The notes: a model not told the origin generated them from the letters alone. Counted from the stretch's first letter, positions 1,383-27,276 are shown. The stretch is 38,380 nucleotides of DNA from an uncultured Gammaproteobacteria bacterium (GCA_964511035.1 CAZEDP010000002.1:1-38380); one strand, 5' to 3'. Program-made: numbers and translations.

Positions 1383-1688
1383 ATGACAAATGAAGCATTA
1401 AATCATATCAATTTTTTGATAAAAATAGCTCAGGATTTCTTGAATAATAAAATTAATATAGACGAATTTTGTATTGAGTTTGAGAATTATCTTGATGATC
1501 ATGGAAATGAAATATGCAAATATCATCAAGAAATCTATGAGTATCTTGATGATATAAGAATCGGGATTGCATATTATGAACCCGATCCTGAAATAAGAGA
1601 TCATCCAAGTCTTATTGATGAAAATGAATTAAGAAAAAGAACCAAAAAAGTACTTGATGCATTGTCAAATAAATATAATCTCAGATGA
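1383..1688 (+). CDS. small acidic helical protein, colicin D immunity (ImmD / Colicin_immun)-like, paralogue 1 of 4
   Basis: 101 aa. Pattern FL..KI...EF ... YEPDPE.RD...IDE.ELRK.TK.VLD resembles my recollection of ImmD (LFLASKITAIEF ... [28 protein letters not shown]). Paralogous to 1685-2002, 8669-8974 and 8971-9288. Confidence 0.6.
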   Translation: MTNEALNHINFLIKIAQDFLNNKINIDEFCIEFENYLDDHGNEICKYHQEIYEYLDDIRIGIAYYEPDPEIRDHPSLIDENELRKRTKKVLDALSNKYNLR

Positions 1689-2002
1689 AGATAAATATGA
1701 CAAATGAAGCATTAAATCATATCAATTTTTTGATAAAAATAGCTCAGGATTTTTTAAATAATAAAATTGATATTGAAGAGCTTGATATTGAGTTTGAGGA
1801 TTATTATGTAAATCATGCAAAAGAAATCTTTAATTATAGTCAAGAAATCTATGAATATCTTGATAATATAAGAATGGGAATTGACTATTATGAAGCTGAC
1901 CCTGAAGCAAGAGATTTGCCATGTTTGCTTGATGAGGATGGAGTGAGAAAGGAAACGAAAAGAGTTCTTGATGTATTGGCTGATAAATATAATTTGAGGT
2001 AA
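1685..2002 (+). CDS. ImmD-like small protein, paralogue 2 of 4
   Basis: The ATGA start/stop overlap with the upstream paralogue suggests translational coupling. An alternative start 12 nt downstream gives MTNEALNH, as in paralogue 1. The last ~40 nt are identical to the 3' end of 8971-9288. Confidence 0.6.
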   Translation: MKINMTNEALNHINFLIKIAQDFLNNKIDIEELDIEFEDYYVNHAKEIFNYSQEIYEYLDNIRMGIDYYEADPEARDLPCLLDEDGVRKETKRVLDVLADKYNLR

Positions 2003-3273: not shown

Positions 3274-3419
3274 AAATAGTTATTTTCTTTTCTTACAGAG
3301 TAATTTATTGGCAAATAAAATTACATTGGACATATGGATTTAAAAACAAGTGTTTGTCTAAATGTTAATTGAATTTTAATTTATATTATAACCCAATTTC
3401 ACGCAACACAGGAGTTTAT

Positions 3420-4133
3420 ATGGAAAACGAAAATTTCAGCACATCAGAAAATTCAAGCTTGAACCCCGTTCAGAATGAAAATGAAAGTTCACCTACAAAT
3501 GTTCAAGGAAACATTATTAATAATGAGCCGGATTCAATTCCTCAAATTACTGAAAAAACCGATAATACCTTATCTCAACTGGAAGAAGAAAGGAAATTAA
3601 GACAAAAATATGAGGACGCAATCTTTGAACTTAGTGAAAAAGAAATAAATTCTCAGAATTTACAGGCACATTATGATTATCTGCTAAAAAATAAAGGTGA
3701 AGCATATGCAAATCAGTGGCTTGACAACAAGCTAAAGAATTTTTCCGCTGTTCAGACTGAAAACCAGTCTGTCTTAAGAAATGTTCAGACAAAATATCAA
3801 GAATTATATGCCGTTCCTGAAGTTAAGCAGGCAATTGAAGCATATTTACAAATGGATATGAACCAGAATGAAAGCCTGAAAGAACAGGGCTTTGAAGATG
3901 CTGTTGAGTATATTTCTTCGATTTATAAAGCAGGCTATGATGCGGCTTTGAAAATGAAATCTGAAAATAATAATGCAAAATCAAGACTGCAGTCTTCGGT
4001 TAACTGCGGTGTACCGTCTTCCAATACCTCCAGAGCATTTACCAGAGCAGAAATAGCTGCAATGGATACCGAAACTTTTTCTAAAAATGAAAAAGTGATT
4101 TTTGATCAAATGGCAAAAGGCTTGATAAAGTAG
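3420..4133 (+). CDS. phage scaffolding-like protein
   Basis: I prefer the ATG at 3420, preceded by AGGAG at ~3410, over the TTG at 3369. The protein is Q/E/K/N-rich and coiled-coil-like and lies immediately upstream of the capsid gene. Its C-terminal tail FTRAEIAAMDTETFSKNEKVIFDQMAKGLIK is the type seen at scaffold C-termini. Confidence 0.55.
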   Translation: MENENFSTSENSSLNPVQNENESSPTNVQGNIINNEPDSIPQITEKTDNTLSQLEEERKLRQKYEDAIFELSEKEINSQNLQAHYDYLLKNKGEAYANQWLDNKLKNFSAVQTENQSVLRNVQTKYQELYAVPEVKQAIEAYLQMDMNQNESLKEQGFEDAVEYISSIYKAGYDAALKMKSENNNAKSRLQSSVNCGVPSSNTSRAFTRAEIAAMDTETFSKNEKVIFDQMAKGLIK

Positions 4134-4278: not shown

Positions 4279-5121
4279 ATGGCTAATGACTTAACAAATT
4301 TTGTACCGGAAATTTGGTCGAAAAAATTGACCACATTGCTTGATAAATCCGGCGTTATGATGCAGTGCATTAACAGGGATTTTGAAGGCGATATAAAAAA
4401 TTCCGGCGATACGGTATATATCCGTTCTTTCGGCAATGTAACCGTAAAAACATATTCCGGCTCTATAACTTATGATGATTTGACTTCGCCCTTGCAAACA
4501 TTGTTAATCGATCAGAAAAAATACTTTGCATTCAAGGTTGATGATGTTTCCAAAGCTCAGTCAAACATCAACATCATGAGCGGCTACCTTGAAAGAGCCC
4601 GTGTTGCTATCGACCTTGCCAAGGACAGTTTTTTACTTGCAAAACATGCAGATGTCCCGAGTGAAAACGTCGTAGGTTCGGAAGAAACACCGGTTGAACT
4701 TACAAAAGACAATATTTATTCGAATTTTGTTGCTATGGCAAAAGCTCTTAAAAAGGCTAACGCTATCACAAAAGGGCAAAAACCCTGGATTGTCATAAAT
4801 CCTGATATCGAAGCTCTTTTAATACAGGCTCCGGAATTCATCCATGCTACTCATTCAGGTGATAATACCTTGAGAGAAGGTTCTATCGGAAAGATTGCCG
4901 GCTTGGACGTTTTGGTCTGTACTAATTTTGAAGCAACTGCCGGCAAATATTATGTGCTTGCAGGTACAAACAATGCCGTTACCTTTGCCTCTCAGGTCGT
5001 TGAAGTTGAATCGATCAGGCTTCAGGATTCATTTGATACAGCCGTCAGAGGTCTCTATGTTTACGGCGCTAAAACAGTCGTAGCAAATGCGCTTGCCAAA
5101 TTAATCTGCACTATATCATAA
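4279..5121 (+). CDS. phage major capsid protein (HK97-fold; P22-coat / N4-gp56-like N-terminal signature)
   Basis: 280 aa. N-terminus NFVPEIWSKKL...NRDFEGDIKNSGDTVYIR is typical of this coat family as I recall it. RBS GGAAAGGAAAAA is present, the gene follows the scaffold gene, and a strong terminator follows it. Confidence 0.75.
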   Translation: MANDLTNFVPEIWSKKLTTLLDKSGVMMQCINRDFEGDIKNSGDTVYIRSFGNVTVKTYSGSITYDDLTSPLQTLLIDQKKYFAFKVDDVSKAQSNINIMSGYLERARVAIDLAKDSFLLAKHADVPSENVVGSEETPVELTKDNIYSNFVAMAKALKKANAITKGQKPWIVINPDIEALLIQAPEFIHATHSGDNTLREGSIGKIAGLDVLVCTNFEATAGKYYVLAGTNNAVTFASQVVEVESIRLQDSFDTAVRGLYVYGAKTVVANALAKLICTIS

Positions 5122-5204: not shown

Positions 5205-5519
5205 ATGAATGATTATAATGAAATAGAAAAACAATTATTAGGTAATAAAGCCGATTCTTATGAGACTGAAGTTAATTTCGGCCTTGAAAATGAAATAGCG
5301 GAAGCACGGGAACTCAAAGAGAAAAAATTGAGCCCCTTGAAAATAACAGATATCAACAAAATATCACCTGATAAAAAATACGATAAAAATTCCATATATA
5401 GAGTTTTTAACAGAAAAAACAAAACTGAAACATACGTCAACGGTGAGCAGGCCGAAAATATGGTCAAATATACGGAAGATTATATTATTCGTTTTGATCA
5501 TCGGATTGAGATGGTGTAG
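5205..5519 (+). CDS. hypothetical protein (phage module)
   Basis: 104-aa ORF with GAGGATG-type RBS context. Its 3' end overlaps the convergent TPR gene by 35 nt. Confidence 0.4.
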   Translation: MNDYNEIEKQLLGNKADSYETEVNFGLENEIAEARELKEKKLSPLKITDINKISPDKKYDKNSIYRVFNRKNKTETYVNGEQAENMVKYTEDYIIRFDHRIEMV

Positions 5520-6225
5520 CAAGATCTTTTTTTACTTTTGTAAAATGAGGATTGATTTCGAGAGCTTTTTGATAATTTTCAACGGCCAAGTCTTTTAAAC
5601 CAACTATTTCATAAACTACAGCCAAATTGTAATAATTTATTTCCGAATTAGGTTCGCGTTCAATCAATTCTTTATAAATGCTGATAGCAGAGGTGTAATC
5701 ATGCCTGATAATGTAAATAGCTGCAATCTTATTGAGCGACCAATCAGACATAGCATAAGAAGCCGGTAATTTTTTAAAATTATCGAAAGCTAAGTCAATC
5801 GATTTTATTTCAAAATATGTGTTAGCCAGATTTTCAACCGCTATATTTAATGAAGGATTTATCTTAATAGCCTTTTTAAAACTATCTATTGCTTTATTGA
5901 AATTCTTTTTTCTGAAATACAAAGAACCAAGATTATTGTATGTTAAATCATCAGAAGGGTTCAATTCTAAAGCTTTTTGGTAACTTAAAACAGCTTGTTT
6001 TACCATCCCTTTTTTAGTATATGCCAGCCCTAAATCATAAAATATTTTGAAATTTTGAGGGTCATTTTTTAAAGCTCTTTTATATGATTTTATGGCTGAA
6101 GTGTAATCCCCGTTATTGTAAAAATCAATGCCTTCTTGTAAATAACTGTTATTATTCAGTTCTTGAGACAAAGCTAAATTGCAATAAATCAAAACTAAAA
6201 ATAAAGTAGAAAATATTTTTTTCAT
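5485..6225 (-). CDS. secreted TPR-repeat protein (opposite-strand insert in the virion module)
   Basis: Signal peptide MKKIFSTLFLVLIYCNLALS-QE. Repeated TPR signatures (AIKSYKRALKNDPQN, AVLSYQKALELNPSD, AIDSFKKAIKINPS, AVENYQKALEINPH). Confidence 0.8.
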   Translation of the reverse strand: MKKIFSTLFLVLIYCNLALSQELNNNSYLQEGIDFYNNGDYTSAIKSYKRALKNDPQNFKIFYDLGLAYTKKGMVKQAVLSYQKALELNPSDDLTYNNLGSLYFRKKNFNKAIDSFKKAIKINPSLNIAVENLANTYFEIKSIDLAFDNFKKLPASYAMSDWSLNKIAAIYIIRHDYTSAISIYKELIEREPNSEINYYNLAVVYEIVGLKDLAVENYQKALEINPHFTKVKKDLATPSQSDDQNE

Positions 6226-6357: not shown

Positions 6358-7077
6358 ATGACTAACTTTGACGATATATTGAAAAATGTTTGCGTGCTTG
6401 TTCATGAGGAGCCGCCTGTCAATTTTGACGACGATAACCCGCCGTTTCCGGAAATCAAACAGTATATTAAAGAAATCTTGAGTGAAGTCTGTTTAAGGTT
6501 CCCTTTTACCTTCAGGGAAAGAAAATATACTTTCCAAACCACATCAGGACAAAAAGAATATGATATTTCCGCAAATGTTCAACTCAACAGCATTCTTAAA
6601 GACGGGGTAAGAATTGAAGATACTCTTCTGCCTCTGTATTTTGTTAAGCACAGTGACCTCGATAAACTTTCGGAAGAAAGCGGAAAGCCGTTAAGATATT
6701 CTATTTTCGGCGGAAAATTAATACTTGACCCGATACCGGACAGTTCTTATTCCGTTCAGATTAAATTTTTGACGCAGAACTGCGCTTTTAACAGTGATAA
6801 AACTGAAGAAAAAGATAATCTTGAAGATGCAGCAGATGTACCGCTAATACCCGAGAAGTTCATAAAAGTAATTGAATGGGGGACAGCGTCCCTTTACAGA
6901 CAGAATTACAAACCCGATGAAAAATACAAGTTCACAAGAGAAAAATTCCTTGAGTATCTGCTTGAAATGCAAAGACAGGACGGTTACGGCGGAGATTCCG
7001 AAGGGAGAATTGTGTTCGAAAAGGGATTTGATAGTAATTCGTCGCTTATAAAAGAATTTTTCAGAACAGATATTTAA
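6358..7077 (+). CDS. phage structural protein (possible head-tail adaptor)
   Basis: 239-aa ORF with RBS GAAAGGAAAAAA, located between the capsid and other virion genes. Assignment is by position and general resemblance only. Confidence 0.35.
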   Translation: MTNFDDILKNVCVLVHEEPPVNFDDDNPPFPEIKQYIKEILSEVCLRFPFTFRERKYTFQTTSGQKEYDISANVQLNSILKDGVRIEDTLLPLYFVKHSDLDKLSEESGKPLRYSIFGGKLILDPIPDSSYSVQIKFLTQNCAFNSDKTEEKDNLEDAADVPLIPEKFIKVIEWGTASLYRQNYKPDEKYKFTREKFLEYLLEMQRQDGYGGDSEGRIVFEKGFDSNSSLIKEFFRTDI

Positions 7078-7100: not shown

Positions 7101-8657
7101 ATGAATAAAAGAGATTATACGGGGTATGTAAACCCGAAATTGAATGATTCGAATAAAATATTCACAAGGGAAGAAATCGCGAAAATGCCGAGGGCTGAAT
7201 TTGCGGCTAATGAAAAAGCTATTGATTATCAACTAGGAACAATCGGAATACCATCCGAAAACGATTTGCAGGGTAGCAGCGGGGTTGTCCATGTCAGAGC
7301 ATATACAAAAGGTGACGGAACCGACGTAAGAGAACATTATCGCTCTGCTCCCAATCGACAGTCAAATACTTGGGGAATGGGAGTTGATGAGGATAAAAAT
7401 AACAAACCTGATTCAGATGAGGATAAAACACCCGCCCCTAATCCAAAACCGACTGAAGATCCAAACACTGATAAAAATCCAAATCCAAAAACTCCCGATC
7501 CCGAAAATAATTCCGGCGATGTGCTCAAAGGCGGAATAGTTATTAATGAATACAACGAAAATGCTAAAGGAAGTATACCCTATCTTGCAATTGCTATTGC
7601 TATAGGCGCTTTAGTTTTAACAGCGGTAAAAATTGCTGCAGCAATCGCCGGAACCAAATCTCAACAGACTATATCCGGTAGTCCAATTAATGCAATTGAA
7701 ATTAATAATAATAGTTCCGAAAGAATTAAAACGCATCAGGCAAGAAATGTTCAAATACAAAATTATAAAGCTCAATTAGTAAATATAATTAAAGAATCCA
7801 GAACATTGCTGGAAAAACAAAAGTCAGAACTCCAAAGTTTCGAAAACAAAATAGCTAAAAATAATAACCAATCTGTTCATAAACAATTGTGGGCTGAATA
7901 TTCAGCTAATAAATCGTTGTATCAAGACAACAAAGCTAAAATCGACAAATTGGAAAATATGGTAAATAATAACCAGTTTCAGGAAATTGCAAGGGATTAT
8001 AAGAATTCATACGCAGAAGAAGGAGGAGGAGGAAATCCTAAATCATCTGGTAATGACAGATTAAAAGGTTTTAGACCATTATCGTATAATTGGAAAACAG
8101 CTGTACAACAATCTCGAGAAGCAACTATAAATGACTTAATAAACTACGGACTCTTTTCCGCAAGTTTTGCAGGTGTTCCCGGCATTGAAGAACAGGCTAT
8201 CGCAAAAGCTCTACCTATTGTTGGCAAGATGGGACAAGGGGCTTTGGCTAGAACTCCTTTAATACGAAACGTATATGAGAGGCTCTCGGAAAAAGCAATA
8301 ATAAAATTTATTGAAGAAAAAGTTGCTCAAATGCCGAAAGTATACAAAGGAAGACCTTCAAATCCCTCTCTTTACAAAGAAAAACTTTATAGAACATATT
8401 ATACTTTGAAAAATAACGGTTATTTGGTAAATCGTCATGCAGTGCCAAGAATTGTGCAACGGATTAATCAGGGTAAAATCAGTTCGGTAGAAAAAATTCT
8501 AGAAGTTTTAAAAAAGGGTCATTTGTATTATGATCCTGTTGAAAATAATTATGTGCGTTACGCAGACAATGTGGCTGTAATTATTGATAGATATACAGGT
8601 GAAATAGTAAATGCAATTGGTAGGGGAACTAACCCTTACTGGATTTTGAAAAAATGA
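7101..8657 (+). CDS. virion-module protein with scaffold-type N-terminal motif, one TM helix and a C-terminal RelE/BrnT/DUF4258-like putative RNase toxin domain
   Basis: aa 21-45 FTREEIAKMPRAEFAANEKAIDYQL matches the scaffold tail. A P/D/N/K linker follows, then a TM helix at aa 159-184 (IPYLAIAIAIGALVLTAVKIAAAIAG). The C-terminus reads NRHAVPRIVQRINQGKISSVEKILEVLKKGHLYYD...NVAVIIDRYTGEIVNAIGRG. ImmD-like genes start 11 nt downstream. Confidence 0.5.
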   Translation: MNKRDYTGYVNPKLNDSNKIFTREEIAKMPRAEFAANEKAIDYQLGTIGIPSENDLQGSSGVVHVRAYTKGDGTDVREHYRSAPNRQSNTWGMGVDEDKNNKPDSDEDKTPAPNPKPTEDPNTDKNPNPKTPDPENNSGDVLKGGIVINEYNENAKGSIPYLAIAIAIGALVLTAVKIAAAIAGTKSQQTISGSPINAIEINNNSSERIKTHQARNVQIQNYKAQLVNIIKESRTLLEKQKSELQSFENKIAKNNNQSVHKQLWAEYSANKSLYQDNKAKIDKLENMVNNNQFQEIARDYKNSYAEEGGGGNPKSSGNDRLKGFRPLSYNWKTAVQQSREATINDLINYGLFSASFAGVPGIEEQAIAKALPIVGKMGQGALARTPLIRNVYERLSEKAIIKFIEEKVAQMPKVYKGRPSNPSLYKEKLYRTYYTLKNNGYLVNRHAVPRIVQRINQGKISSVEKILEVLKKGHLYYDPVENNYVRYADNVAVIIDRYTGEIVNAIGRGTNPYWILKK

Positions 8658-8668
8658 GGTAAATAAAT

Positions 8669-8974
8669 ATGGTAAATGATGCAATGAATCATATCAATTT
8701 TTTAATAAACATGGCTAATGATTTTTTGAATAATAGAATTGATATATATGAATTTTGTATTGAGTTTGAAAATTATCTTGAAGATAATATGACAAACATA
8801 TCAGATTATAACAGCGAAATCTATGAATATCTTGAAGATATAAGAATGGGAATTGCAAATTATGAATCTATTCCCGAGGCTAGGGATCGTCCTTACTTTC
8901 TTGATGAGGACGGAGTGAGGAAGAGAACTAAAAGTGTTCTCGATAAATTATCAAGCAAATATAATCTCAGGTGA
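8669..8974 (+). CDS. ImmD-like small protein, paralogue 3 of 4 (candidate cognate immunity)
   Basis: 101 aa with GAGG RBS. Same motif set as 1383-1688 (FLNNRIDIYEFCIEFENYL ... YESIPEARDRPYFLDEDGVRKRTKSVLD). Confidence 0.6.
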   Translation: MVNDAMNHINFLINMANDFLNNRIDIYEFCIEFENYLEDNMTNISDYNSEIYEYLEDIRMGIANYESIPEARDRPYFLDEDGVRKRTKSVLDKLSSKYNLR

Positions 8975-9288
8975 AGATAAATATGACAAATGAAGCATTA
9001 AATCATATTAAATTTTTAATAAATATGGCTAATGATTTTTTGAATAATAGAATTGATATAGAGGAATTTGATATTGAATATCAAGATTATTTTGAAAATC
9101 ACTCAAAAGAAATTTTAGAATATAATAAAGACGTTTATGAATATCTTGATCATATATATATGGGTGTTGAGTACTATGAATCTATTCCTGAGGCTAGAGA
9201 TCGCCCTTACTTTCTTGATGAGGACGGAGTGAGGAAGAGAACTAAAAGTGTTCTTGATGTATTGGCTGATAAATATAATTTGAGGTAA
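8971..9288 (+). CDS. ImmD-like small protein, paralogue 4 of 4
   Basis: GTGA overlap with the upstream gene. An internal ATG gives MTNEALNH. Roughly two-thirds identical by eye to 1685-2002, with an identical 3' end. Confidence 0.6.
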   Translation: MKINMTNEALNHIKFLINMANDFLNNRIDIEEFDIEYQDYFENHSKEILEYNKDVYEYLDHIYMGVEYYESIPEARDRPYFLDEDGVRKRTKSVLDVLADKYNLR

Positions 9289-9627
9289 TTGGGAATATAT
9301 TAATGTGAAGTTGGGATTCATTCACACGTCCCATTTGGACTGGACTGACACTGTGAATGGTATTCTTTGCTTGCGCTTAGTTCTGGCATTATAGGGACAG
9401 ATCCCCACGTTCGCGGAGTTTACACTGAGCAGAGCGAATGTACTCTCTGAGGATGACATGGTTTGTTATGGTTGGGATACGACCTTGCGATGCCGTGTCG
9501 GTACACGACATGACGGGGGCTTTTTGGATTGCTTCGTCACTCTGCTCCTTGCAATAGGGGTATTCGCTTTTGTGGATTTTTAGCGTTTTTAAATGTTAGA
9601 AAAAGTTTTTAATATTACTAATCATTA
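9289..9627. ncRNA. candidate structured non-coding element B (unclassified), related to 2003-2335
   Basis: No ORF of 60 aa or more on either strand. By hand count, 34 of 60 bases are G/C at 9481-9540, against 8 of 60 at 9001-9060. Helices: ATTCACA 9320-9326 with TGTGAAT 9352-9358; GAGCAGAG 9427-9434 with CTCTGCTC 9540-9547. Shares conserved blocks with element A. Confidence 0.3.
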
Positions 9628-11103
9628 ATGAACAAGGAAATATTGCACATGGCTAAATTTAATTATTTTAATAACACAGGCGGGCTGAATAAATTTCTGT
9701 CCGAAGCGCAGCTAAACGAAAGCCCGAAAAGAACAGATTGGTTTGACGCTCAAAATGTAGAGTGCTATAAATCAGGCGGTATTCGCAAAATGAAGGGATG
9801 TAAAAATATTTTATTCTCCTCATTGCCCACAGACACTAGAATACTGGGGATTTTTGAATATGTTCGAGCAGGGGAGATTTATCCCGTTATCAACACTTCA
9901 GAAGGGAAATTGTATAAATTCGAAATAGAATCCGGCGAACTGAGCCTTTTGTATTCGGGACTTGATGCTAATGCAAAATGTCTTTATGCCAATTACAACA
10001 ACGGAGTAATTATTACCAACGGCATTGACAGCCCTATATTTTACGAGCTGGGAAACAATCCTGTTACACTTGGAGAAGACGCCCCCAAAGGACTGTCTTT
10101 GGAAATATTTAAATCAAGAGTATTCATAGCTAAAGATTCAACATTGTATTACAGCGCTCTGGGCAATCAGTTTGACTGGACAACAGAAAAAGATGCAGGT
10201 TATATCGGTAATTTTCATAATGACGCAAGCCCGATTACCGCTCTGAAAAATTACGGGGAATTCTTGGCAATATATAAGGAAAAAAGTGTTTATATTCTTT
10301 CGGGAAGCTCTCCTGATGATTATTCCATTAGTCCGGTAGCTGATAAAGGGTCTTTAAGTCCGTTTGGAATTGGAACAATTAACAACAACCAGTTTTTCTT
10401 CAACGGGGAATCCATTACACCGTTAAAATTCAATGAACTGGGACAGATTTTGCTCGACAACGACATCAGCATAAAAATTAAACCTGTCTTTGAAGAACTG
10501 GATAAAACAAAATTCAGTCAAACTATTTGCGTTCCTTATAAAAATAAAAATCAGATATGGTTTTATTTCGGAACAAAAGATTCTGATTGTTTAGATGAGT
10601 GTTATGTTTTTGATTATCTCAACAACTGCTGGTACAAAAGGAAAGGCATTCCCATAGTCTGCGCCGGAATTATTGACGGTGAAATCTATACCGGAACTTC
10701 CGACGGAAGAATACTTCAGGAAAACTCAACCGATAGTTTTGACGGAGAAAATATTGAAGCATGGTGGGTATCACCGTGGTTTTGTTTTGACTCCCCTCAA
10801 AATGAAAAGGAAATGTCGGATTTTAATATCTGGCTCTATGAATCTCAAAAGTGCCCCATTGAAATCAGCTTTTATAAGAATTTCAAAAATATTCCGTTCA
10901 AAACAGCGGGAGTCAGCGTTTATAACAATAAAACACTGGTTTGGGACGGTAATAACTGGGTAGAAAATAACTATGCGAACGAGTATTCAAAAAGAAAGAA
11001 TGTGAAAATTAACGGAAGATTTGAACAATTACAGATAAAAATAAGCAATTTGAATGCTAATGAACCTTTTGAAGTTCTGGGGTTTTCATTTGAGCTTGAG
11101 TAG
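9628..11103 (+). CDS. phage virion structural protein (tail/nozzle-type guess)
   Basis: 491-aa ORF. An alternative start at ATG 9649 has an AAGGA RBS. The N-terminus NNTGGLNKFLSEAQLNESPK...AQNVECYKSGGIRKMKG resembles podovirus structural proteins as I recall them. No firm family assigned. Confidence 0.4.
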   Translation: MNKEILHMAKFNYFNNTGGLNKFLSEAQLNESPKRTDWFDAQNVECYKSGGIRKMKGCKNILFSSLPTDTRILGIFEYVRAGEIYPVINTSEGKLYKFEIESGELSLLYSGLDANAKCLYANYNNGVIITNGIDSPIFYELGNNPVTLGEDAPKGLSLEIFKSRVFIAKDSTLYYSALGNQFDWTTEKDAGYIGNFHNDASPITALKNYGEFLAIYKEKSVYILSGSSPDDYSISPVADKGSLSPFGIGTINNNQFFFNGESITPLKFNELGQILLDNDISIKIKPVFEELDKTKFSQTICVPYKNKNQIWFYFGTKDSDCLDECYVFDYLNNCWYKRKGIPIVCAGIIDGEIYTGTSDGRILQENSTDSFDGENIEAWWVSPWFCFDSPQNEKEMSDFNIWLYESQKCPIEISFYKNFKNIPFKTAGVSVYNNKTLVWDGNNWVENNYANEYSKRKNVKINGRFEQLQIKISNLNANEPFEVLGFSFELE

Positions 11104-11148
11104 TTGTTTTTGTAATTGATTAATTGCTATTTGGAATGGAAAAAATAC

Positions 11149-11691
11149 ATGATTAAATTTATCCCGATAAGAGCTGATTTTGAAAACGGGAAATTTGAGA
11201 ATCAGCAGTATTTGCCTTATATTTTAGAGACTTTTTATAAATATAAAGGCATTCTCACAGATGACTATTATCCTGAAAATAATTTCGAACTGCTCTCTCA
11301 AGTTATAGCCGAAATCAACGACCTGTACCCCTGGTTTTTGCTGTGCCTTTACGAAGGTAAGCCTGCCGGCGCGGCATGGGTTTCGCATTGGCATGGAAGT
11401 GAGAAGAAAATTCATTCCTGTCAAATTCAGTGCTTTGTAGATAAACAATACTGGGGAAGAAAAGCCGTTGAAATGGCTGATACGTTTTTAAAACTGCTCT
11501 TTGAAAACTACAAAATTGAAAGAATACAAATGGAAGTGCCGGAGCATAACGCCAGAGCTCGAGCTTTTGTCGAAAAGTTAGGCTTTGTCAAAGAAGGCAC
11601 AATAAGATGCGCAACATTAAAAAATAATAAACCTTTGAATCATATACTGTTTAGTAAACTGAAAGGAGAACATATATATGGGAAGAAGTAA
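11149..11691 (+). CDS. GNAT-family N-acetyltransferase (RimJ/RimL-like)
   Basis: Motif A-like region QYWGRKAVEMADTFLKLLFENYKIERIQMEVPEHNARARAFVEKLGFVKEGTIR. I prefer ATG 11149 over the TTG at 11116. The 3' end overlaps the next gene by 14 nt. Confidence 0.75.
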   Translation: MIKFIPIRADFENGKFENQQYLPYILETFYKYKGILTDDYYPENNFELLSQVIAEINDLYPWFLLCLYEGKPAGAAWVSHWHGSEKKIHSCQIQCFVDKQYWGRKAVEMADTFLKLLFENYKIERIQMEVPEHNARARAFVEKLGFVKEGTIRCATLKNNKPLNHILFSKLKGEHIYGKK

Positions 11692-13290: not shown

Positions 13291-13743
13291 ATGGTTGAAA
13301 TATGTTCGCCTGAAATGTTATACATAAAACTCGTTTCCGAGGGTTTTCCGATAAATTCCAACCTGTTTGCAACCAAGAACTTTAGGTGGAAAGAGTTGTT
13401 AATAAATCAAACCAAAGTTCCAACTCTGGCAGTAATCGTGAATTTGTTCAAAACAGCTTCTCTACTCCAGAAATACAGAGAGCTGATTTTTGAAAATTCC
13501 CCGATAATAATAACATCAGGTTGGAGATCAAAAGAATATAACAAAAAAATTGGCGGAGCTCCAAATTCATATCATATTCATGGCATGGCTCTCGACTTTG
13601 TTTGCACCAAGTTTTCCCCTCAGAAAGTACAAAAAAAATTAAATCCGGTTCATCAGGGGGGATTGGAGTTCGCACCCACATGGACACATATTGACATTAG
13701 AAAGGAAAGAACCAGATTTGACAGTAAAGGAAGGGTTGTGTAG
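13291..13743 (+). CDS. peptidase M15A-type (zinc D-Ala-D-Ala carboxypeptidase fold) endolysin
   Basis: SGWRSKEYNKKIGGAPNSYHIHGMALDF (H-x6-D) and a distal TWTHIDIR histidine: the Peptidase_M15_3 signature. Confidence 0.8.
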   Translation: MVEICSPEMLYIKLVSEGFPINSNLFATKNFRWKELLINQTKVPTLAVIVNLFKTASLLQKYRELIFENSPIIITSGWRSKEYNKKIGGAPNSYHIHGMALDFVCTKFSPQKVQKKLNPVHQGGLEFAPTWTHIDIRKERTRFDSKGRVV

Positions 13744-13776: not shown

Positions 13777-13804
13777 AAGCCGCTTGCAAAAGCGGCTTTT
13801 TTTG
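13777..13804 (+). terminator. rho-independent terminator after the endolysin gene
   Basis: AAGCCGCT tgcaaa AGCGGCTT followed by a T run. Nearly the same hairpin recurs at 28670. Confidence 0.7.
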
Positions 13805-13903
13805 TGCCTAAATGTAAATTTTTGCAAAATCTCCCCTTTAAATTAGCAATGATTTTTATTTACAGCATTTTATTTATTAAGAAAAGAATTCGAGATTTTT
13901 TAT

Positions 13904-15542: not shown

Positions 15543-18500
15543 TTATGAATGCCAGGACATAGCAATAATATTCATCAACCCGGCATTTGCTTTGACAGCA
15601 TTAACACTGGTCAGACTAATGCCATTAGCAGCTGCATAAGCTGTCATGTCCTGAAGAATTAAGTTAACGTCCGTATTGGTTATGTAACTATTGTCGCTTA
15701 ATTGGATTTTTTCTATTTGTCCGCTTGCTGAATTCCAGTTTTTAACCTTGATTACATCAGCGTTTCCTGTTTCACCGTAATCCAAATATAAATTTCCGGC
15801 ATTATCTTTGAACATGGCAATGTTTGTTTTATCAACACTTGAACCAAATTTTATAACATCATCACCGCCGGTATCCTTGACCGTGTCTATGTTATCACCT
15901 TTCTCAAATACGTAAACATCATTTCCTCCACCGCCATTCAAATCATCGTTTCCTACTTCACCGATTAAAAGGTCATCTCCAAGTCCGCCGTCAATTTTAT
16001 CATCTCCTCCATTGCCGATTAAATTATCATTGTCTTTGTGACCGTTGATGGAATTATCGCCTGAATTGCCTAATATTGTATTACTGCCAGAATTTCCATT
16101 GGCATTGATATTATCAACTCCATTCATAGTCAGGTTTTCCACATTTTCGGGCAATGTATAACTGACGCCGGAAATTATTTCGTCCGTTCCCTCACCTGAA
16201 TTTTCAGTAACAATGTCACCGTTATTATCAACGTAATAGACGTCATCTCCGCCGCCGCCTGCCATAATATCAGCACCGCTTCCGCCGTCTATAACATCAT
16301 CTCCTCCGGTTCCGATCAAACTGTCATCAGAATCAGAGCCTTCAATGACCGCAAATAAGCTTTCAATGTCTGCGGAGGTTAATGAAGATCCATCGGCAAA
16401 TTCTAATTTTTCGATTTTGTTCTCAGCAACTAATTGATTTGTAATCAGTATGCTGTCCTGTGTCAAATTGCCATCCGCATCTTTTAGCGTAATCAAAACA
16501 TCATAATCTGATACAGATTTTGTTATAACCAAATCATTCTGAGTAATTCCTTCACCGAATACTATTTTGTCATCAGCTCCTGCATCAAACCATGAAAATC
16601 CTTCACTATCACTGTCAAATATTGTATCCTGACCGTCGCCTCTGTTAAATATATATGTATCGTTATCGCTTCCACCGCCGAGAAGGTCATCACCGGTTCC
16701 TCCGGTTAGTATATCATTTCCGTAACCGCCTTCTAAATCATCACTGCCGTTTTCTCCGTAAAGAAAATCATCTCCGTCATCGCCATAAAGTGTGTCATCT
16801 CCTTCACCGCCGTATATGTTATCAGTACCGCCTCCGGCATAGAGGGAGTCATTTCCGCCGTTTCCGTAAATATCTTCATTGGTAGTTGAACCGAATATTG
16901 TATCGGCTTCGTCAGTGCCCTGTTTAATAATCTTTCCATAGGTTATTATCGACTCGACATCATCGCAGGAAATACTGCTTCCGTTAGCAAATTCAAAGGT
17001 TTCAATTCTATAATTTGCAGAGGATTCATATTGATATTGCACTATAATCTGGTCATTGGATAGTCCGTTAACAGGGTCTTTGATTTTAACTAACAGATCG
17101 AGATTTTGTTTTTCAAACGACAAATTATCAAGGGTGATTCCTTCTCCGAACCTGATTGTATCCGTCCCGTAGTTCTCTCTGATTTTGTCCTGACCGTCTC
17201 CGATATTGAAGACATAGACATCATCTCCGGAACCGCCAATTAGCTCATCATTGCCCGTGCCGCCGTTTAATATATCGTTTCCGGAACCGCAGTTTAAAAT
17301 GTCATCACCTGCTTCGCCGTAGATGGTCATGCTGCCGGTATAATATCTCCATAATGAATTGGTATGATAACTCCAGACATAATCATTTCCGTCACCGCAG
17401 TAAACTGTATCATTACCGTCCCCTACATCTATAAAGTCATTTCCTTCTCCACCGTACAGCATGTCATCTCCGCCGTTACCCTGCAAATTATCATCACCTG
17501 ATTCGCCGTAAATCCTGTCACCGAAATTACTGCCGCTGATTGTATCATTTCCTGACGTGCCGTGTGTTGAAAATGTGCTTTCCAGTTCGTCTGACGTTAA
17601 CACCGTTCCGTCAGCAAATTCAAAGTTCTCTATCCTTGATAATCTTGTATCCCAATAGTCTTTAACGAAATATTCGTACAACTCAATCTTATCTGTGCTG
17701 TTTTTATAGGTAATCTCCAAACTGGCTCCGTTAACGCTGAAATTAAGGTCATCCAGCGTTATTCCTTCTCCGAACCTTATAGTATCATTTCCATAGCTTT
17801 CCCTGATTTTGTCCAGACCGTCTCCGATATTGAAGACATAGACATCGTCTCCGGAACCGCCCATCAACTCATCATTGCCCGTGCCGCCGACCAATAAATC
17901 ATTCCCCGGTCCGCAGTTTAAAATGTCATCGCCTGCTTCGCCGTATATGGTCATGCTGCCGGTATAATATCTCCATAATGAATTGGTATGATAACTCCAG
18001 ACATAATCATTTCCGTCACCGCAGTAAACTGTATCATTACCGTCCCCTACATCTATAAAGTCATTTCCTTCTCCACCGTACAGCATGTCATCTCCGCCGT
18101 TACCCTGCAAATTATCATCACCTGATTCGCCGTAAATCCTGTCACCGAAATTACTGCCGCTGATTGTATCATTTCCTGACGTGCCGTGTGTTGAAAATGT
18201 GCTTTCCAGTTCGTCTGACGTTAACACCGTTCCGTCAGCAAATTCAAAGTTCTCTATCCTTGATAATCTTGTATCCCAATAGTCTTTAACGAAATATTCG
18301 TACAACTCAATCTTATCTGTGCTGTTTTTATAGGTAATCTCCAAACTGGCTCCGTTAACGCTGAAATTAAGGTCATCCAGCGTTATTCCTTCTCCGAACC
18401 TTATAGTATCATTTCCATAGCTTTCCCTGATTTTGTCCAGACCGTCTCCGATATTGAAGACATAGACATCGTCTCCGGAACCGCCCATCAACTCATCATT

Positions 18501-20606
18501 GCCCGTGCCGCCGACCAATAAATCATTCCCCGGTCCGCAGTTTAAAATGTCATCGCCTGCTTCGCCGTATATGGTCATGCTTCCCGTATAGTATCTCCAA
18601 GAAGAATTAGCATGATAACTCCAGACATAATCATTTCCGTCACCGCAGTAAACGGTATCTTGCCCTGCTCCTACGTCAATGCTGTCATTTCCTTTTCCGC
18701 CGTACAGAGTGTCATCACCTTCCCAGCCTTTTAGGGCATCCGCAAAAGACATTCCGATAAATACTTGTACACTGCCGTTAAGAATATCATAATGTTTTTG
18801 GTCTATTTTCCCTTCGAAAAGAGTGTAAGGCATGTTTCCTTCGTCGCTCAGCGTTTTTAAGATTAAACTCATATAATCTTTGCCGATATCGGTTTGAGAA
18901 TTCATCTGTTCGGCAATACTGTTTACAGCAGACGAAATATCTGAAGGAAAGATTATTTTATCGGATGCGAGATCGTACTGAGCCTCGCTAAAAGAACCGG
19001 CAAGCTGACTTTGCGCAACAAAATGAGCAAACATAAGGTCTCTTAGTTTTTTATAAGACATATCTATGTTACCAATAACTTCTGAAATCAGCGGAACCTC
19101 TGTTGAAAATTCGTCAGTGCTGCCGGGAGGATAGTATTTGTATACTTCTCCCATAAACTTTTCGAGTATCGAGAGTTTCCTGTCATTATAATAAGGTCCC
19201 CTTCCCGCATTGATGTCCACATCATCCACCCCTGCCCATTTAGCAAGAAGCTCATCCATTGCGGAACACACTTCTGATAAGTCAGTCAGGTTTGTCATTT
19301 CTGAAACAAAGTCTTTTAATTCGGGATTTTCGCTCATTGCGATTGAGAGGTCTTTTACATCCCCGTAGCCTTTTAATAAAGGCAGTCCGATAATTGAAGC
19401 ATCCAGAACAATCGGACCCGTTGTAACAGAGTTAATTTGATTAATTAATAAATTCACATCGGCGGCTGTTTGTGTCCTTCCGTCGGAATAAGTGAAGGTC
19501 GAAACTTCCGAAATGAGATTTTCGTTATTAAGTTGGTTTACACTTGCAGGGTTGAGGTTAATTGACGTTATACCCAAATCCGATAAGGTATTTACTTCAT
19601 AGCTCTCTGCAATTCCGTTTCCGTCAATATCACGCCAGACTTTAATTTGATTGAATATTTCATCGTTTGCGTCAATGATGTTATCGTTATTGGTATCATT
19701 GGTTTTCATTTCTTCAAAGCCTGTTATTTCAGGGCTTCCGAATAGTTCGCTAATCCCGTCAATCTGACCGTTATTATTCCCATCAACGACAAGTATCCCG
19801 TTATTTGGGCTTATCCAACCGACTCTTTCTGCTATGCCGTCTCCGTCGAGGTCAAAATAAGCATTTGAATTTGTAATGGCTATTGTCTCAATTCCGCCAC
19901 CGTCAAGGTCTATAACCAACGGGTCAAGCCTTGTATGGACACTGTTATTATAACAAAACTGTGCGGAGTTGATTACAGGGTTGAGGGATGGGGGTATAAC
20001 CGGTTCCATGTCTGGCAGCCAGTCGCCGGGGGCAAATTCTCCCTCGCCAGGGATGGTCAGTAAGTCACCGGGCTTGATGAGGACAAAAGACTTATCGGCA
20101 TTCGTCCTGTCGGCAAGCCAAGGGTTGGCAGAGAGCAGTTCGTCAAGGGTTTTGTTGTGTTTTTGGGCAATCGCCCATAAAGAGTCTCCCGATTTGACAG
20201 TGTAAAAAGAATTTAGCTCATAACCAGTGTCAGATAGAGAATTTTCATTATAATTATTCTCACTTTTTAATTTTTCAAAAATGCTGTCACATGTTGTTTT
20301 TATTGCCCCTTCACTTTGTAAATTCCAAGTATTTATACTATAAAAAACATAACCCGCTGTAGCAAGGGAAATCGCCCCACACCCAAATGTACCGGTTCCT
20401 AACGTAGATGCCTCACAATAAGCAAAAACTACCGTACCTGTTGCTAATGAAGTCGAAATTTTAATATCTTGAAGACCATTTTGAACCAATGCTTCAGAGA
20501 TGTTACAAGTTAAAGCTTGAGTAGCATCACTTTTGTCATCTCTAATTTTCATGCTTGTTATTAAAAGTTCTAAAATATCAGTAAATACTTTTAAATAATT
20601 TTCCAT
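15543..20606 (-). CDS. giant RTX-repeat exoprotein with N-terminal hydrophobic Gly-rich segment and LysM domain
   Basis: 1687 aa. LysM at aa 135-185 (YTVKSGDSLWAIAQKHNKTLDELL...IKPGDLLTIP, nt ~20052-20204). PLVIDLDGGGIET / FDLDGDGIAE / DGNNNGQIDG block typical of large RTX proteins. Dozens of GGxGxD nonapeptides (e.g. GGTGNDELMGGSGDDVYVF). Confidence 0.9.
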   Translation of the reverse strand: MENYLKVFTDILELLITSMKIRDDKSDATQALTCNISEALVQNGLQDIKISTSLATGTVVFAYCEASTLGTGTFGCGAISLATAGYVFYSINTWNLQSEGAIKTTCDSIFEKLKSENNYNENSLSDTGYELNSFYTVKSGDSLWAIAQKHNKTLDELLSANPWLADRTNADKSFVLIKPGDLLTIPGEGEFAPGDWLPDMEPVIPPSLNPVINSAQFCYNNSVHTRLDPLVIDLDGGGIETIAITNSNAYFDLDGDGIAERVGWISPNNGILVVDGNNNGQIDGISELFGSPEITGFEEMKTNDTNNDNIIDANDEIFNQIKVWRDIDGNGIAESYEVNTLSDLGITSINLNPASVNQLNNENLISEVSTFTYSDGRTQTAADVNLLINQINSVTTGPIVLDASIIGLPLLKGYGDVKDLSIAMSENPELKDFVSEMTNLTDLSEVCSAMDELLAKWAGVDDVDINAGRGPYYNDRKLSILEKFMGEVYKYYPPGSTDEFSTEVPLISEVIGNIDMSYKKLRDLMFAHFVAQSQLAGSFSEAQYDLASDKIIFPSDISSAVNSIAEQMNSQTDIGKDYMSLILKTLSDEGNMPYTLFEGKIDQKHYDILNGSVQVFIGMSFADALKGWEGDDTLYGGKGNDSIDVGAGQDTVYCGDGNDYVWSYHANSSWRYYTGSMTIYGEAGDDILNCGPGNDLLVGGTGNDELMGGSGDDVYVFNIGDGLDKIRESYGNDTIRFGEGITLDDLNFSVNGASLEITYKNSTDKIELYEYFVKDYWDTRLSRIENFEFADGTVLTSDELESTFSTHGTSGNDTISGSNFGDRIYGESGDDNLQGNGGDDMLYGGEGNDFIDVGDGNDTVYCGDGNDYVWSYHTNSLWRYYTGSMTIYGEAGDDILNCGPGNDLLVGGTGNDELMGGSGDDVYVFNIGDGLDKIRESYGNDTIRFGEGITLDDLNFSVNGASLEITYKNSTDKIELYEYFVKDYWDTRLSRIENFEFADGTVLTSDELESTFSTHGTSGNDTISGSNFGDRIYGESGDDNLQGNGGDDMLYGGEGNDFIDVGDGNDTVYCGDGNDYVWSYHTNSLWRYYTGSMTIYGEAGDDILNCGSGNDILNGGTGNDELIGGSGDDVYVFNIGDGQDKIRENYGTDTIRFGEGITLDNLSFEKQNLDLLVKIKDPVNGLSNDQIIVQYQYESSANYRIETFEFANGSSISCDDVESIITYGKIIKQGTDEADTIFGSTTNEDIYGNGGNDSLYAGGGTDNIYGGEGDDTLYGDDGDDFLYGENGSDDLEGGYGNDILTGGTGDDLLGGGSDNDTYIFNRGDGQDTIFDSDSEGFSWFDAGADDKIVFGEGITQNDLVITKSVSDYDVLITLKDADGNLTQDSILITNQLVAENKIEKLEFADGSSLTSADIESLFAVIEGSDSDDSLIGTGGDDVIDGGSGADIMAGGGGDDVYYVDNNGDIVTENSGEGTDEIISGVSYTLPENVENLTMNGVDNINANGNSGSNTILGNSGDNSINGHKDNDNLIGNGGDDKIDGGLGDDLLIGEVGNDDLNGGGGNDVYVFEKGDNIDTVKDTGGDDVIKFGSSVDKTNIAMFKDNAGNLYLDYGETGNADVIKVKNWNSASGQIEKIQLSDNSYITNTDVNLILQDMTAYAAANGISLTSVNAVKANAGLMNIIAMSWHS
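17190..18730 (-). repeat. 624-bp (208-aa) tandem repeat, ~2.5 units, inside the giant RTX gene
   Basis: CGATATTGAA anchors at 17201, 17825 and 18449 give a period of 624. About 17290-17957 and 17914-18581 are near-identical, and exact from ~17323. The flanking partial units are more diverged. Confidence 0.9.
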
Positions 20607-20652
20607 TCCTATTCTCCTATTTTATTTTTCACATACTTGACTAGGATGCTTA

Positions 20653-21498
20653 TTATAATGAATTAGCTTCTTTTAATTTATTTTGTTTAAGATACAACAA
20701 CCTCAAGTCATTTATTACGGAAGATTTTTTTTCTTGTTTGTAATTGCCATATGCCGTAATTGAACTTATATAAGCTTTTTCAGCACCAGAATAATTTTTC
20801 TCAATTTCATAGATATAACCTAAAAATGCTAGTGTATCAGCATAATCAATATTTCTATTTTTTATTTTATAAAAATCCATTGCTTTAAAACAAATTGCCT
20901 CAAGCTTGTCAAACTTCTTTTGTTTAAAATACAAAATTATTAAATTTTTTAATATTGAATCATATAAGAAATCAGGACTTTCTTTACTGTATTGGGAGAA
21001 ATTATCACTATTAGAAAGACTATCCTCATAAGTTTTTAACGCTTTCAGAAAATACGTTTCGGCTTCATTATATTGTTTTCTAGTCAAATTCAAGCACCCA
21101 AGTCGATCATAGACTGCAACCACACTAATATGAAATTCACCAAACTGCTTAATCCTCGATTCCAATAAAGTTTGATACAAATTATTTGCTTTTATATACT
21201 TTTCCTCATCAGAAAAAAGCTGAGCTAATTCAAAAATTATTATTGATTTTTTAAAGTTTGTATCGTGATTATAATTTGTTGCCAATGCCTTAAGGCTTTC
21301 ATTGTAATTTTCTTCCGCTATTTTGCCGAATTTAGTTTGGTGATTCTCTTGATATATTTTATGGGCATTTCTTGCTATGAAATAGTGAATATCAAAAGAA
21401 TAATAATTCCAGATTGTTGGAAAAGAATAAACAACCAAAATAACAAATAATATCACTGATAGTATTTTAAAAAATTGATTTTTACTAATATTTTTCAT
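20653..21498 (-). CDS. membrane-anchored TPR-like protein (immunity/accessory candidate)
   Basis: I prefer the start at MRMKNIS or MKNIS (21504 / 21498), just after the AAAGGGG RBS in the conserved spacer. N-terminal TM helix FFKILSVILFVILVVYSF. TPR-like units (YNEAETYFLKALKTYED, YSGAEKAYISSITAYGN). Confidence 0.6.
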   Translation of the reverse strand: MKNISKNQFFKILSVILFVILVVYSFPTIWNYYSFDIHYFIARNAHKIYQENHQTKFGKIAEENYNESLKALATNYNHDTNFKKSIIIFELAQLFSDEEKYIKANNLYQTLLESRIKQFGEFHISVVAVYDRLGCLNLTRKQYNEAETYFLKALKTYEDSLSNSDNFSQYSKESPDFLYDSILKNLIILYFKQKKFDKLEAICFKAMDFYKIKNRNIDYADTLAFLGYIYEIEKNYSGAEKAYISSITAYGNYKQEKKSSVINDLRLLYLKQNKLKEANSL

Positions 21499-21500
21499 TC

Positions 21501-22855: not shown

Positions 22856-22856
22856 T

Positions 22857-23993: not shown

Positions 23994-23994
23994 C

Positions 23995-24272: not shown

Positions 24273-24327
24273 TTTTTGGATAAATGCGGCTATTTATATA
24301 CATCGTTTTCTATATCACATGCCGACC

Positions 24328-25128: not shown

Positions 25129-25134
25129 TAAGTA

Positions 25135-25716: not shown

Positions 25717-25720
25717 TTTC

Positions 25721-27240: not shown

Positions 27241-27276
27241 GATTATTATTTCTCCTTGTTGTTATTAATTTGTAAC

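Follow-up and report, generated by a model that had tools for sequence, protein, structure and literature searches.

What is a gene with the features of a bacterial toxin doing among the head and tail-connector genes of a phage-like element? The question is raised by a 518-codon gene, hereafter the target, in a stretch of 38,380 nucleotides (nt) from an uncultured Gammaproteobacteria bacterium (GCA_964511035.1 CAZEDP010000002.1:1-38380); this whole stretch is referred to below as the window. Its first ~13.8 kb hold, on the + strand, a block of structural and lysis genes like those of a phage, and the target belongs to a podovirus-like element with SU10-type portal and adaptor, probably from a gut relative of Melainabacteria. 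A sequence-only reading of the window had described the product as a toxin carried in phage heads, addressed there by a short peptide shared with a scaffold-like protein. Based on the comparisons reported here, the target is very probably a polymorphic toxin with immunity; the reading as a whole, that of a phage-borne polymorphic toxin packaged with a swappable toxin cassette, we consider likely, and the part of it that places the protein in the particle through the scaffold-like motif is, judged from sequence comparison, favoured by a narrow measure. The features discussed are collected in Table 1; proteins and loci compared with the target carry our P and L numbers.

The N-terminal module of the target is conserved in a large set of proteins and, in our alignment A4, has invariant residues N11, E24, Q44, G49, P51, V65, Y68, V76 and R81. 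Its first half contains the peptide that had been noticed to recur in the C-terminal tail of the scaffold-like protein encoded at 3369–4133, and this resemblance stood up to independent comparison. Residues 21–45 of the target share 13 of 25 positions with residues 224–248 of the scaffold-like protein (nt 4038–4112, inside the ~4032–4130 given by the sequence-only reading), and BLASTP aligned the two with 13 identities in 31 columns (E=2e-5). We then built a module profile from 25 other proteins, excluding both the window sequence and the scaffold, and searched it with filters off against the 593 stop-to-stop open reading frames (ORFs) of the window. It matched the target (E=2.5e-39) and, next, the C-terminus of the scaffold-like protein (amino acids (aa) 216–249, E=5.5e-6), while the next-best ORF scored E=0.54; the similarity of the motif, on which the sequence-only reading had made its case depend, is therefore significant in a profile comparison. 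The second half of the module follows the pattern GIP…GVVHV.AYTR.DGT.V..HYRS.P.

The scaffold-like gene lies immediately 5' of the major head gene in the window, and its homologue adjoins the capsid gene in eight IMG/VR contigs, in which the compact parent block comprises nozzle, capsid, scaffold-like protein, adaptor, a ~115-aa protein, GNAT, portal and terminase. Fifteen scaffold-like proteins, at only ~25% identity elsewhere, agree best in the terminal peptide, with the consensus [IV]FTRE[ED]IG.MSG.EF.KNEK.IM.Q.KQGLIK at the protein end. In a distant cluster of 53% GC in MW495066.1, a 204-aa gene at the canonical position between portal and capsid, where scaffold genes lie, ends in RFSRQQIAQMSLPEFLKHEAAINEALKNNRVQ. 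The product of 3369–4133 is thus a small helical protein with a capsid-adjacent gene and a conserved extreme C-terminus, as is usual for scaffolds, and we infer that role from its position, size and C-terminus; a PHROGs search with the 15 proteins returned no scaffold family. The C-termini of scaffolding proteins are coat-binding elements in P22, phi29 and 80-alpha. Taken with that role, the shared peptide therefore supports a co-assembly of the toxin into procapsids. The MW495066.1 region (200675-225481, our L089), filed as 'Microcystis phage MaAM05', is among GenBank 'phage' records the one that best matches the capsid (45.8%) and the nozzle-like proteins. There, genes for portal, scaffold-like protein, capsid, adaptor, nozzle and M15 form a ~10-kb cluster that has lepA, proS, ftsH, hppA and a tRNA around it and no terminase close by; it seems that a bacterial contig, or a domesticated cluster, was deposited under the name of a phage.

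Among 1.84 billion representative proteins the module was matched 382 times at E<=1e-3, almost always through aa 2–90. Of the best 150 of these 382 matches, 78 have it N-terminally, 69 at the extreme C-terminus and 2 internally, and the C-terminal versions often have the first half in duplicate. Its partner domains, counted in 147 module proteins, include DUF6973 (10), Lipase_3/Mbeg1 (8), PBECR1 (5), GH108 lysozyme (4), Gln_amidase/Tox-PL1 (4) and LPD3 (3). The module itself has no match in Pfam, PHROGs, NCBIfam or PDB. A scan of species-representative genomes, made with a narrower alignment, located 72 module loci, most of them labelled Candidatus Gastranaerophilales or Melainabacteria; the remaining labels are nearly all the generic 'uncultured bacterium', four loci carry other labels, and some genomes hold several module loci. 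At L015, L025 and 23 other genome loci the module genes lie more than 10 kb from recognisable head genes, and these scattered loci may supply effectors to a particle whose genes lie in another place.

Variation at the other end of the protein was examined in 46 complete proteins with the N-terminal module (45 from species-representative genomes and the window protein). All 1035 pairs are similar at the N-terminus, and by their last 120 aa the same proteins fall into clusters of 33, 11, 1 and 1, the window type being a singleton. The first ~90 aa and the helical region are retained among homologues, whose ends differ: P0002 has the C-terminal domain of the window protein, and P0003–P0007 end in an unrelated domain of ~170 aa, CT-B (…HNAT.Y….D..G….I.D.YDF…). 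This exchange of C-terminal domains and immunity cassettes, which the sequence-only reading had anticipated, extends to an orphan copy of the window cassette in the syntenic locus L002. The latter belongs to the closest relative found, the contig CAZXPD010000004.1 (loci L002, L008 and L009; 84–88% DNA identity), where the main gene P0003, with CT-B, is followed by a gene for a protein with multiple transmembrane (TM) helices, a 119-aa CT-B fragment, another multi-TM gene, P0008 and three ImmD-like genes.

P0008 is a stand-alone gene for 227 aa that opens with the main-gene junction, MAENGQFEEGVNNYGGGGGNA. Its identity to the window protein is 84% over aa 288–518 by phmmer and 89% over the last 130 aa by BLASTP, and at the DNA level positions 8022–9294 of the window are 85.8% identical to L002. 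Within L002 the main gene and the orphan are near-identical for ~65 nt at the junction and divergent beyond it; after the Gly run the window tracks the orphan. Since the window is without exactly L002 10918–13281, the target looks as if the orphan cassette had been fused in frame to the main gene. In three unrelated loci the C-terminal domain stands alone, as an orphan cassette that retains homology at the junction. In L005 the orphan P0107 is, over its first 72 aa, 96% identical to aa 538–609 of an upstream protein of 759 aa, and in L006 P0164 belongs to an array that also holds CdiI_3, DUF2247 and Tdi1_C genes, and it repeats a leader, MIGGE.ITASYIGKLLEKLKK, common to another fragment in that locus.

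CT-B is also represented in the window, close to its left edge. Except for its first six residues, the frame-1 translation of 601–801 matches the C-terminus of P0005, and the DNA is 88% identical to the P0004 gene of L002 at its 3' end. The first ~600 nt of the window have 23% G+C and stops in all three + strand frames. In L001 and L002 a paralogue of the target lies directly behind the portal gene; on CAZXPD010000004.1, upstream of the block, a large terminase, two helix-turn-helix genes and the SU10-type portal precede this first paralogue, P0004. The AT-rich, stop-laden start and the CT-B remnant therefore indicate that the post-portal paralogue is disrupted or truncated in the window, which begins within the element, the left end of the latter lying outside. 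CT-B is the commonest C-terminal domain of the family (e.g. P0004 aa ~380–552; L002 12304–12663), with invariant G, D.YD and Q; most module toxin genes of Gastranaerophilales encode ~330-aa proteins ending in it, usually followed by a multi-TM gene, and genes of the multi-TM family stand directly after 23 of 45 module-bearing toxin genes. With no Pfam match and no meaningful profile match in PDB, CT-B is an uncharacterised and probably envelope-acting toxin domain.

Two ImmD-like genes had been reported to begin 11 nt downstream of the target, and both are borne out by the PF09204 profile, with 19.8 and 32.3 bits. The first, which falls just short of the cut-off, has a GAGG ribosome-binding site and aligns with other ImmD-like members. 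A profile of the ImmD-like family finds colicin D immunity proteins as its top PDB matches (1tfk_B and 1v74_B, over residues 5–85 of 91, E=0.12). The gene directly 3' of the C-terminal domain is ImmD-like in five independent contexts, namely the window, the L002 orphan, L090 (after P0002), L005 and L006. In these contexts the C-terminal domain is very probably a toxin neutralised by ImmD-type proteins; presumably one of the two downstream genes encodes the cognate one. The four ImmD-like genes of the window form a direct-repeat family (1372–1985 versus 8658–9271, 73–80% DNA identity) and their 3' halves are mosaic: the end …YESIPEARDRPYFLDEDGVRKRTKSVLD is common to 8669–8974 and 8971–9288, and 1383–1688 matches the third L002 copy, which suggests gene conversion among the immunity genes. 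Taken together, the locus has the properties of polymorphic toxins sensu Zhang et al. 2012: a shared N-terminus with unrelated C-termini, an immunity gene downstream, and orphan cassettes with a shared junction, which were seen in L002 (P0008 and the 119-aa CT-B fragment), the window itself having the CT-B remnant and the orphan ImmD-like pair.

In the C-terminal domain, the H-A-x-x-R…R pattern singled out before is real and forms the conserved core of a family of ~34 proteins, mostly of 80–240 aa. A word-indexed search with the C-terminal domain alone retrieved one protein, and an alignment query reached the family; in the resulting 33-sequence alignment H446, R450, R454 and G458 are conserved in at least 90%. 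The AlphaFold2 (AF2) model from these 33 sequences has a mean predicted local distance difference test score (pLDDT) of 92.7 and a predicted template modelling score (pTM) of 0.84. It does not show a virion structural fold, which the sequence-only reading would have counted as a refutation, but a small alpha+beta domain with helices at 9–21, 34–50, 59–68 and 75–84 (model numbering) and then four strands; the helix 59–68 begins just past the conserved His and bears both Arg residues. The 518-aa protein as a whole gave nothing usable in Pfam, PHROGs, NCBIfam or PDB, and a tblastn search of GenBank phages with the C-terminal domain gave chance-level matches only. One metagenomic protein, P0174 (144 aa), has the N-terminal part of a Tpt1/KptA RNA 2'-phosphotransferase (PF01885) fused to the toxin domain from the catalytic His on, and may be a recombination product.

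Between module and cassette the protein is least conserved. The P/D/N/K-rich linker, single TM helix and Gly hinge described earlier agree with composition (aa 91–150: P 17%, D 15%, N 15%, K 12%), with hydropathy (a single hydrophobic stretch at aa ~159–185, Kyte-Doolittle maximum 2.43 in a 19-residue window) and with a GGGG at aa 308–311. A single-sequence AF2 model of the target was poor overall (pLDDT 41.8) and was used for the long helices only, which it places at 205–253, 257–289 and 292–305 with pLDDT 60–80. The helical region is 72.5% identical to L002 at the DNA level over 7815–7984, and 7368–7814 has no DNA homology to L002.

These observations suggest the following course of events. 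The first half of the module, which copies the C-terminal peptide of the scaffold-like protein, would dock on the inner surface of the procapsid or on the scaffold/portal assembly, so that the toxin is co-assembled. After adsorption, the protein would leave through the channel formed by portal, adaptor and nozzle, with or without DNA, and the variable spacer may aid passage across the recipient envelope, as in ejection proteins. The last ~105 aa, modelled as a small alpha+beta domain and probably of the colicin-like BECR type (DUF4258/Ntox49-like), would most likely act as a metal-independent RNase, with H446 the likely general acid/base and R450 and R454 lining the site, and would cut RNA in cells without a matching immunity gene. 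The ImmD-like proteins would neutralise the toxin in the producer and in cells carrying the same element, the extra immunity genes may shield against toxins of sister strains, and the junction (…QF.E…GGGGN) may be the recombination site through which cassettes are exchanged. A wider and more tentative proposal is that the module is a portable natural cargo tag in Gastranaerophilales capsids, composed of a scaffold-derived peptide of ~30 aa and a beta-hairpin-like half of ~40 aa, and that domesticated particles resembling gene transfer agents (GTAs) deliver polymorphic toxins between strains. Such a tag would work at either protein end, and its cargo would include BECR RNases, lipases, lysozymes, glutamine deamidases and the domain paired with multi-TM immunity. 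The GTA-like part of the proposal draws on the compact structural-plus-lysis clusters, in which, over the stretches seen, genes for replication or integration were not recognised, and on the many toxin genes dispersed elsewhere in the chromosome.

It should be noted that a number of results weigh against the interpretation of the target as a packaged RNase toxin. Concerning its enzymatic part, the window protein has no match to Pfam DUF4258 (PF14076), and full-length P0002 scores 19.4 bits against a gathering cut-off of 25; by sequence, a profile of this domain retrieves no BECR chain from PDB; and Foldseek gives no significant PDB match to the model (best E=0.058). The domain-sized Foldseek matches are exclusively BECR/RelE-type toxins, none of them significant (E=0.07–0.7, TM-score 0.3–0.5). 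Concerning packaging, the module is absent from GenBank phages by tblastn and rare in IMG/VR (9 loci), recognisable head genes occur within 10 kb in only 5 of 30 module loci (at least 18 kb fetched each), and the scaffold-like protein matches no family or structure of Pfam, PHROGs or PDB. In P0003 and P0004 a Pro/Glu-rich stretch replaces the hydrophobic helix, and a conserved translocation role of TM helix and linker is doubtful because neither is kept in the closest relatives. Finally, the phage's own new host would be harmed by a toxin that enters together with the DNA, except where the particle is non-infectious or immunity is expressed early.

As to the fold, the domain-sized matches are CdiA-CT NC101 (5i4q_A; probability 0.91, TM-score 0.47 on the target structure, root-mean-square deviation 3.6 Å over 62 columns), ParE (6x0a), colicin E5 (2dfx_E, 2a8k, 2fhz_B, 3ao9_B) and RelE2 (3g5o_B); the remaining PDB matches are fragments of large proteins with TM-scores below 0.15. 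BFVD gives small phage proteins as best matches (A0A646QWN3, TM-score 0.76), and the list also holds a 'cytotoxic translational repressor' and a DUF4258 protein. Pfam DUF4258 matches only the P0002/P0009 subfamily, two trimmed members of which reach E=3.4e-5, and only one of 33 family members matches at E<=1. DUF4258, which overlaps Ntox49, has been placed in the colicin-like BECR branch of RNases by a 2026 preprint (bioRxiv 10.64898/2026.08.28.747851). The assignment to DUF4258/BECR thus combines sub-threshold and non-significant matches with context, and the genomic context is more decisive for this domain than the fold; a BECR-type RNase is nevertheless the reasonably probable identity.

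Another possible explanation is that the target is an ordinary ejection protein whose C-terminal nuclease serves host takeover by shutting off translation as infection begins, the ImmD-like genes doing no more than guarding the producer during late gene expression and the protein being no weapon between bacteria. The position between adaptor and nozzle and the hydrophobic and long helices would suit it, as such placement and helices are typical of podovirus ejection proteins (T7, P22). The family members with GH108 lysozyme, PBECR1 and LPD3 would suit it too, being reminiscent of phage polyvalent early effectors (PMC5512222). We regard this explanation as unlikely, since the orphan cassettes and spare immunity genes (1383–2002 in the window and three in L002) fit diversifying selection between strains and would be superfluous for a fixed takeover, since the same C-terminal domain is found in non-phage orphan arrays with CdiI- and Tdi1-type immunity genes, and since the L001/L002 stretches available, the left end of the element lying beyond the window, contain no integrase, other integration or replication genes. 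That the domain is no toxin at all, the protein being purely structural and the ImmD-like genes unrelated neighbours, would accord with its location in a structural operon and with the lack of a significant toxin family or fold match. We rejected this as very improbable, because it is contradicted by the behaviour of the cassette: the orphan recurs in three unrelated loci, the domain has an ImmD-like gene after it in each of the five contexts, its His and Arg residues are near-invariant and homologues swap the C-terminus for unrelated domains.

A further alternative is a toxin–immunity moron that happens to sit in the structural operon and is not packaged, its product being membrane-anchored or released on lysis and its module serving another purpose, such as another export route or oligomerisation. 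The hydrophobic helix would provide the anchor, 25 of the 30 well-flanked Gastranaerophilales module loci lie more than 10 kb from recognisable head genes, and reverse-strand genes of cellular type (TPR in the window, CrcB in L001) are interleaved in the operon, so the block tolerates insertions. What makes this alternative improbable in our view is the first half of the module, which is a conserved C-terminal peptide of a scaffold-like protein encoded beside the capsid gene in every related element examined, together with the paralogues directly behind portal and adaptor genes, the partner domains PBECR1, LPD3 and GH108, typical of virion-carried proteins, and the fact that Pfam and NCBIfam searches detected no signal peptide or known secretion-system domain. 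The packaged polymorphic toxin therefore stays our preferred reading. The target gene starts 23 nt past the stop of the SU10-type adaptor, with an AGGAAA ribosome-binding site 6–11 nt 5' of its ATG, and the nozzle-like gene follows further downstream.

Table 1. Features of the window on which the interpretation of the target gene draws.
Feature	Position	Strand	Remarks
CT-B remnant, 66 codons	601..801	+	C-terminus of a second, disrupted toxin paralogue
Multi-TM protein, 190 aa	808..1380	+	Homologue of the gene after P0004 in L002; candidate CT-B immunity
Orphan ImmD-like pair (1383-1688, 1685-2002)	1383..2002	+	PF09204 33.6 and 24.6 bits (cut-off 22); no toxin domain adjacent
Scaffold-like protein, 254 aa	3369..4133	+	Putative scaffold; shared motif at C-terminus, aa 216-249, nt 4014-4115
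Major head protein	4279..5121	+	phrog_267, E=5.7e-51
Head-to-tail adaptor	6358..7077	+	PF24175 SU10_adaptor, E=6.1e-10, 40.3 bits
Target gene	7101..8657	+	518 aa; N-terminal module, variable linker/TM, helical region, junction, swappable C-terminal cassette
N-terminal ~85-aa module (aa 1-85)	7101..7355	+	Proposed virion-incorporation or trafficking domain
Shared peptide FTREEIAKMPRAEFAANEKAIDYQL (aa 21-45)	7161..7235	+	Common to the scaffold-like C-terminus
P/D/N/K-rich linker (aa 91-150) and hydrophobic helix (aa ~159-185)	7371..7655	+	From composition and hydropathy; varies among relatives
Long helical region (aa 205-305)	7713..8015	+	Weakly conserved in relatives
Junction (…QFQEIARDYKNSYAEEGGGGN)	7962..8036	+	Conserved part meets swappable part
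Swappable cassette CT-A (aa ~312-518)	8034..8654	+	Hydrophobic helical part aa 331-395 and toxin domain aa ~413-518 (nt 8337-8654)
ImmD-like gene 1, 101 aa	8669..8974	+	PF09204 E=1.2e-3, 19.8 bits, just below cut-off 22; starts 11 nt after the toxin stop
ImmD-like gene 2, 105 aa	8971..9288	+	PF09204 E=1.5e-7, 32.3 bits; 4-nt overlap with gene 1
Nozzle-like virion protein	9628..11103	+	phrog_3287 'virion structural protein', E=1.6e-22; nozzle role putative
GNAT acetyltransferase	11116-11691		Followed by a gene for a 230-aa protein
Peptidase_M15 endolysin-like gene	13291-13743		

The other genes of the block are those of a phage head and its lysis functions. The L002 homologue of the major head protein belongs to PF25209 (Phage_capsid_4), and the product of 9628–11103 is a putative nozzle, to judge by its place after the SU10-type adaptor and a weak Kelch/propeller match. 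The GNAT gene is conserved in the structural block of all related elements (L049, L052, L076 and L080–L088), where it stands between the ~115-aa gene and the portal. Genes of cellular type occur on the opposite strand, which is unusual in a compact phage head module: in the window the minus strand at 5485–6225 encodes a TPR protein whose N-terminus is signal-like, and in L001 a CrcB fluoride channel (9550–9930, - strand) lies beside the portal gene. Between the second ImmD-like gene and the nozzle-like gene there is a G+C-richer intergenic stretch of ~270 nt (9295–9562) with no counterpart in L002, where the spacer is ~140 nt; it has no Rfam match, its folding as a structured RNA is unexceptional (z=-1.5), and a terminator-like hairpin lies at 9543–9562.

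Beyond the element we take the window to be chromosomal, with glutamyl- and cysteinyl-tRNA synthetases, a MazG-like protein, M16-type peptidases and RTX-repeat proteins as read by eye. A battery of secreted-toxin-like genes (15543–28458, - strand) lies beside the element, among them one for a 1687-aa protein with RTX-type Ca-binding repeats and an internal unit of 624 nt present three times. Two of the genes, 21599–22855 and 25819–27240 (the latter with a lipase GHSLGG motif), encode an identical C-terminus of ~140 aa, their 3' ends and the sequence just downstream being 99% identical over 300 nt, and N-terminal segments are duplicated as well (19948–20168 versus 24341–24561). A hairpin followed by a T-run, AGCCGCTT…AAGCGGCTTTTTTT, is present in two copies, 76% identical, at 13778–13822, directly after the M15 peptidase gene at the element end, and at 28670–28714, beside a tRNA-Ser (28729–28817). 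Though they bracket the toxin-rich region, the two are probably just terminators.

How does the target compare with known systems? Interbacterial-conflict machinery and phage-like elements are documented here in the uncultured Gastranaerophilales, a gut lineage for which, to our knowledge, no cultured phage exists. So far, what is known of phage-borne polymorphic toxins comes essentially from the MuF family, work on which has left the addressing of such cargo to the capsid unexplained. What is new is a phage-borne polymorphic toxin with a short module in place of MuF. MuF toxins of temperate phages are the precedent for polymorphic toxins packaged in heads (PMC3482391, PMC5576092); they too are encoded in head or packaging blocks of phage-like elements and are predicted to travel in the capsid (see also Bxa, PMC11699363), and the target, between SU10-type adaptor and nozzle-like genes, has the corresponding location. 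They likewise combine a conserved N-terminus with variable toxin C-termini (BECR RNases, glutamine deamidase) and downstream immunity genes, sometimes two. We nevertheless rejected membership of the target in this family, since Pfam, PHROGs and NCBIfam detect no Phage_Mu_F (SPP1 gp7-like) domain in the 518-aa protein, as had been perceived from the sequence. Unlike MuF, the conserved part of the target family measures ~85 aa, can stand at either protein end and has half of its length in common with a scaffold-like protein; the family also has orphan C-terminal/immunity cassettes inside the structural operon, and it is found almost only in Gastranaerophilales, not in Firmicutes or Bacteroidales.

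The contact-dependent inhibition (CDI, CdiA) and Rhs systems resemble the target in their displaced C-terminal fragments after the main gene, which retain the pre-toxin junction and have immunity genes of their own, and in recombination at the junction. They differ in that the target lies in a phage-like element and would not be delivered by type V or type VI secretion. Their junctions are marked by VENN or PxxxxDPxGL, versus QF.E…GGGGN in the target. With colicin D/ImmD and DUF4258/Ntox49 the target shares PF09204 immunity and, to judge by the AF2 model, may share a helix with a conserved His and basic residues ahead of a sheet of four strands. The main immunity protein of Tox-ColicinD is ImmD, and the residues of colicin D (KK/HxxD/S) differ from the H…R…R of the target (PMC3482391). 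The target has no significant sequence or fold match to colicin D itself; colicin D proper was rejected on account of the residue pattern, and the pairing of ImmD-type immunity with a DUF4258/Ntox49-like domain, not with colicin D proper, is new. The polyvalent proteins of phages (Iyer et al. 2017, PMC5512222) come close through the relatives of the module that have PBECR1, LPD3 and lysozyme domains, and are predicted to be injected together with DNA; the target, in contrast, has a single recognisable effector domain and dedicated immunity genes, with no processing peptidase (MPTase) detected, and the word 'scaffold' is absent from that paper.

For the addressing step itself, the first half of the module, being a scaffold-like terminal peptide, offers a concrete and testable hypothesis. 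Short terminal peptides that direct otherwise unrelated proteins into HK97-fold shells include the capsid targeting sequence of T4 internal proteins, the P22 scaffold C-terminus in engineered cargo fusions and the cargo-loading peptides of encapsulins. A match to the scaffold's own C-terminus, as in the target, is the principle of engineered P22 nanocages (PMC9962691). The tag of the target would be natural, not engineered, and would differ further in its occurrence on toxins and hydrolases and in having a second conserved half, its binding to the coat being predicted; if the hypothesis is true, it would be the natural counterpart of the engineered P22 scaffold fusion and of the encapsulin loading peptides.

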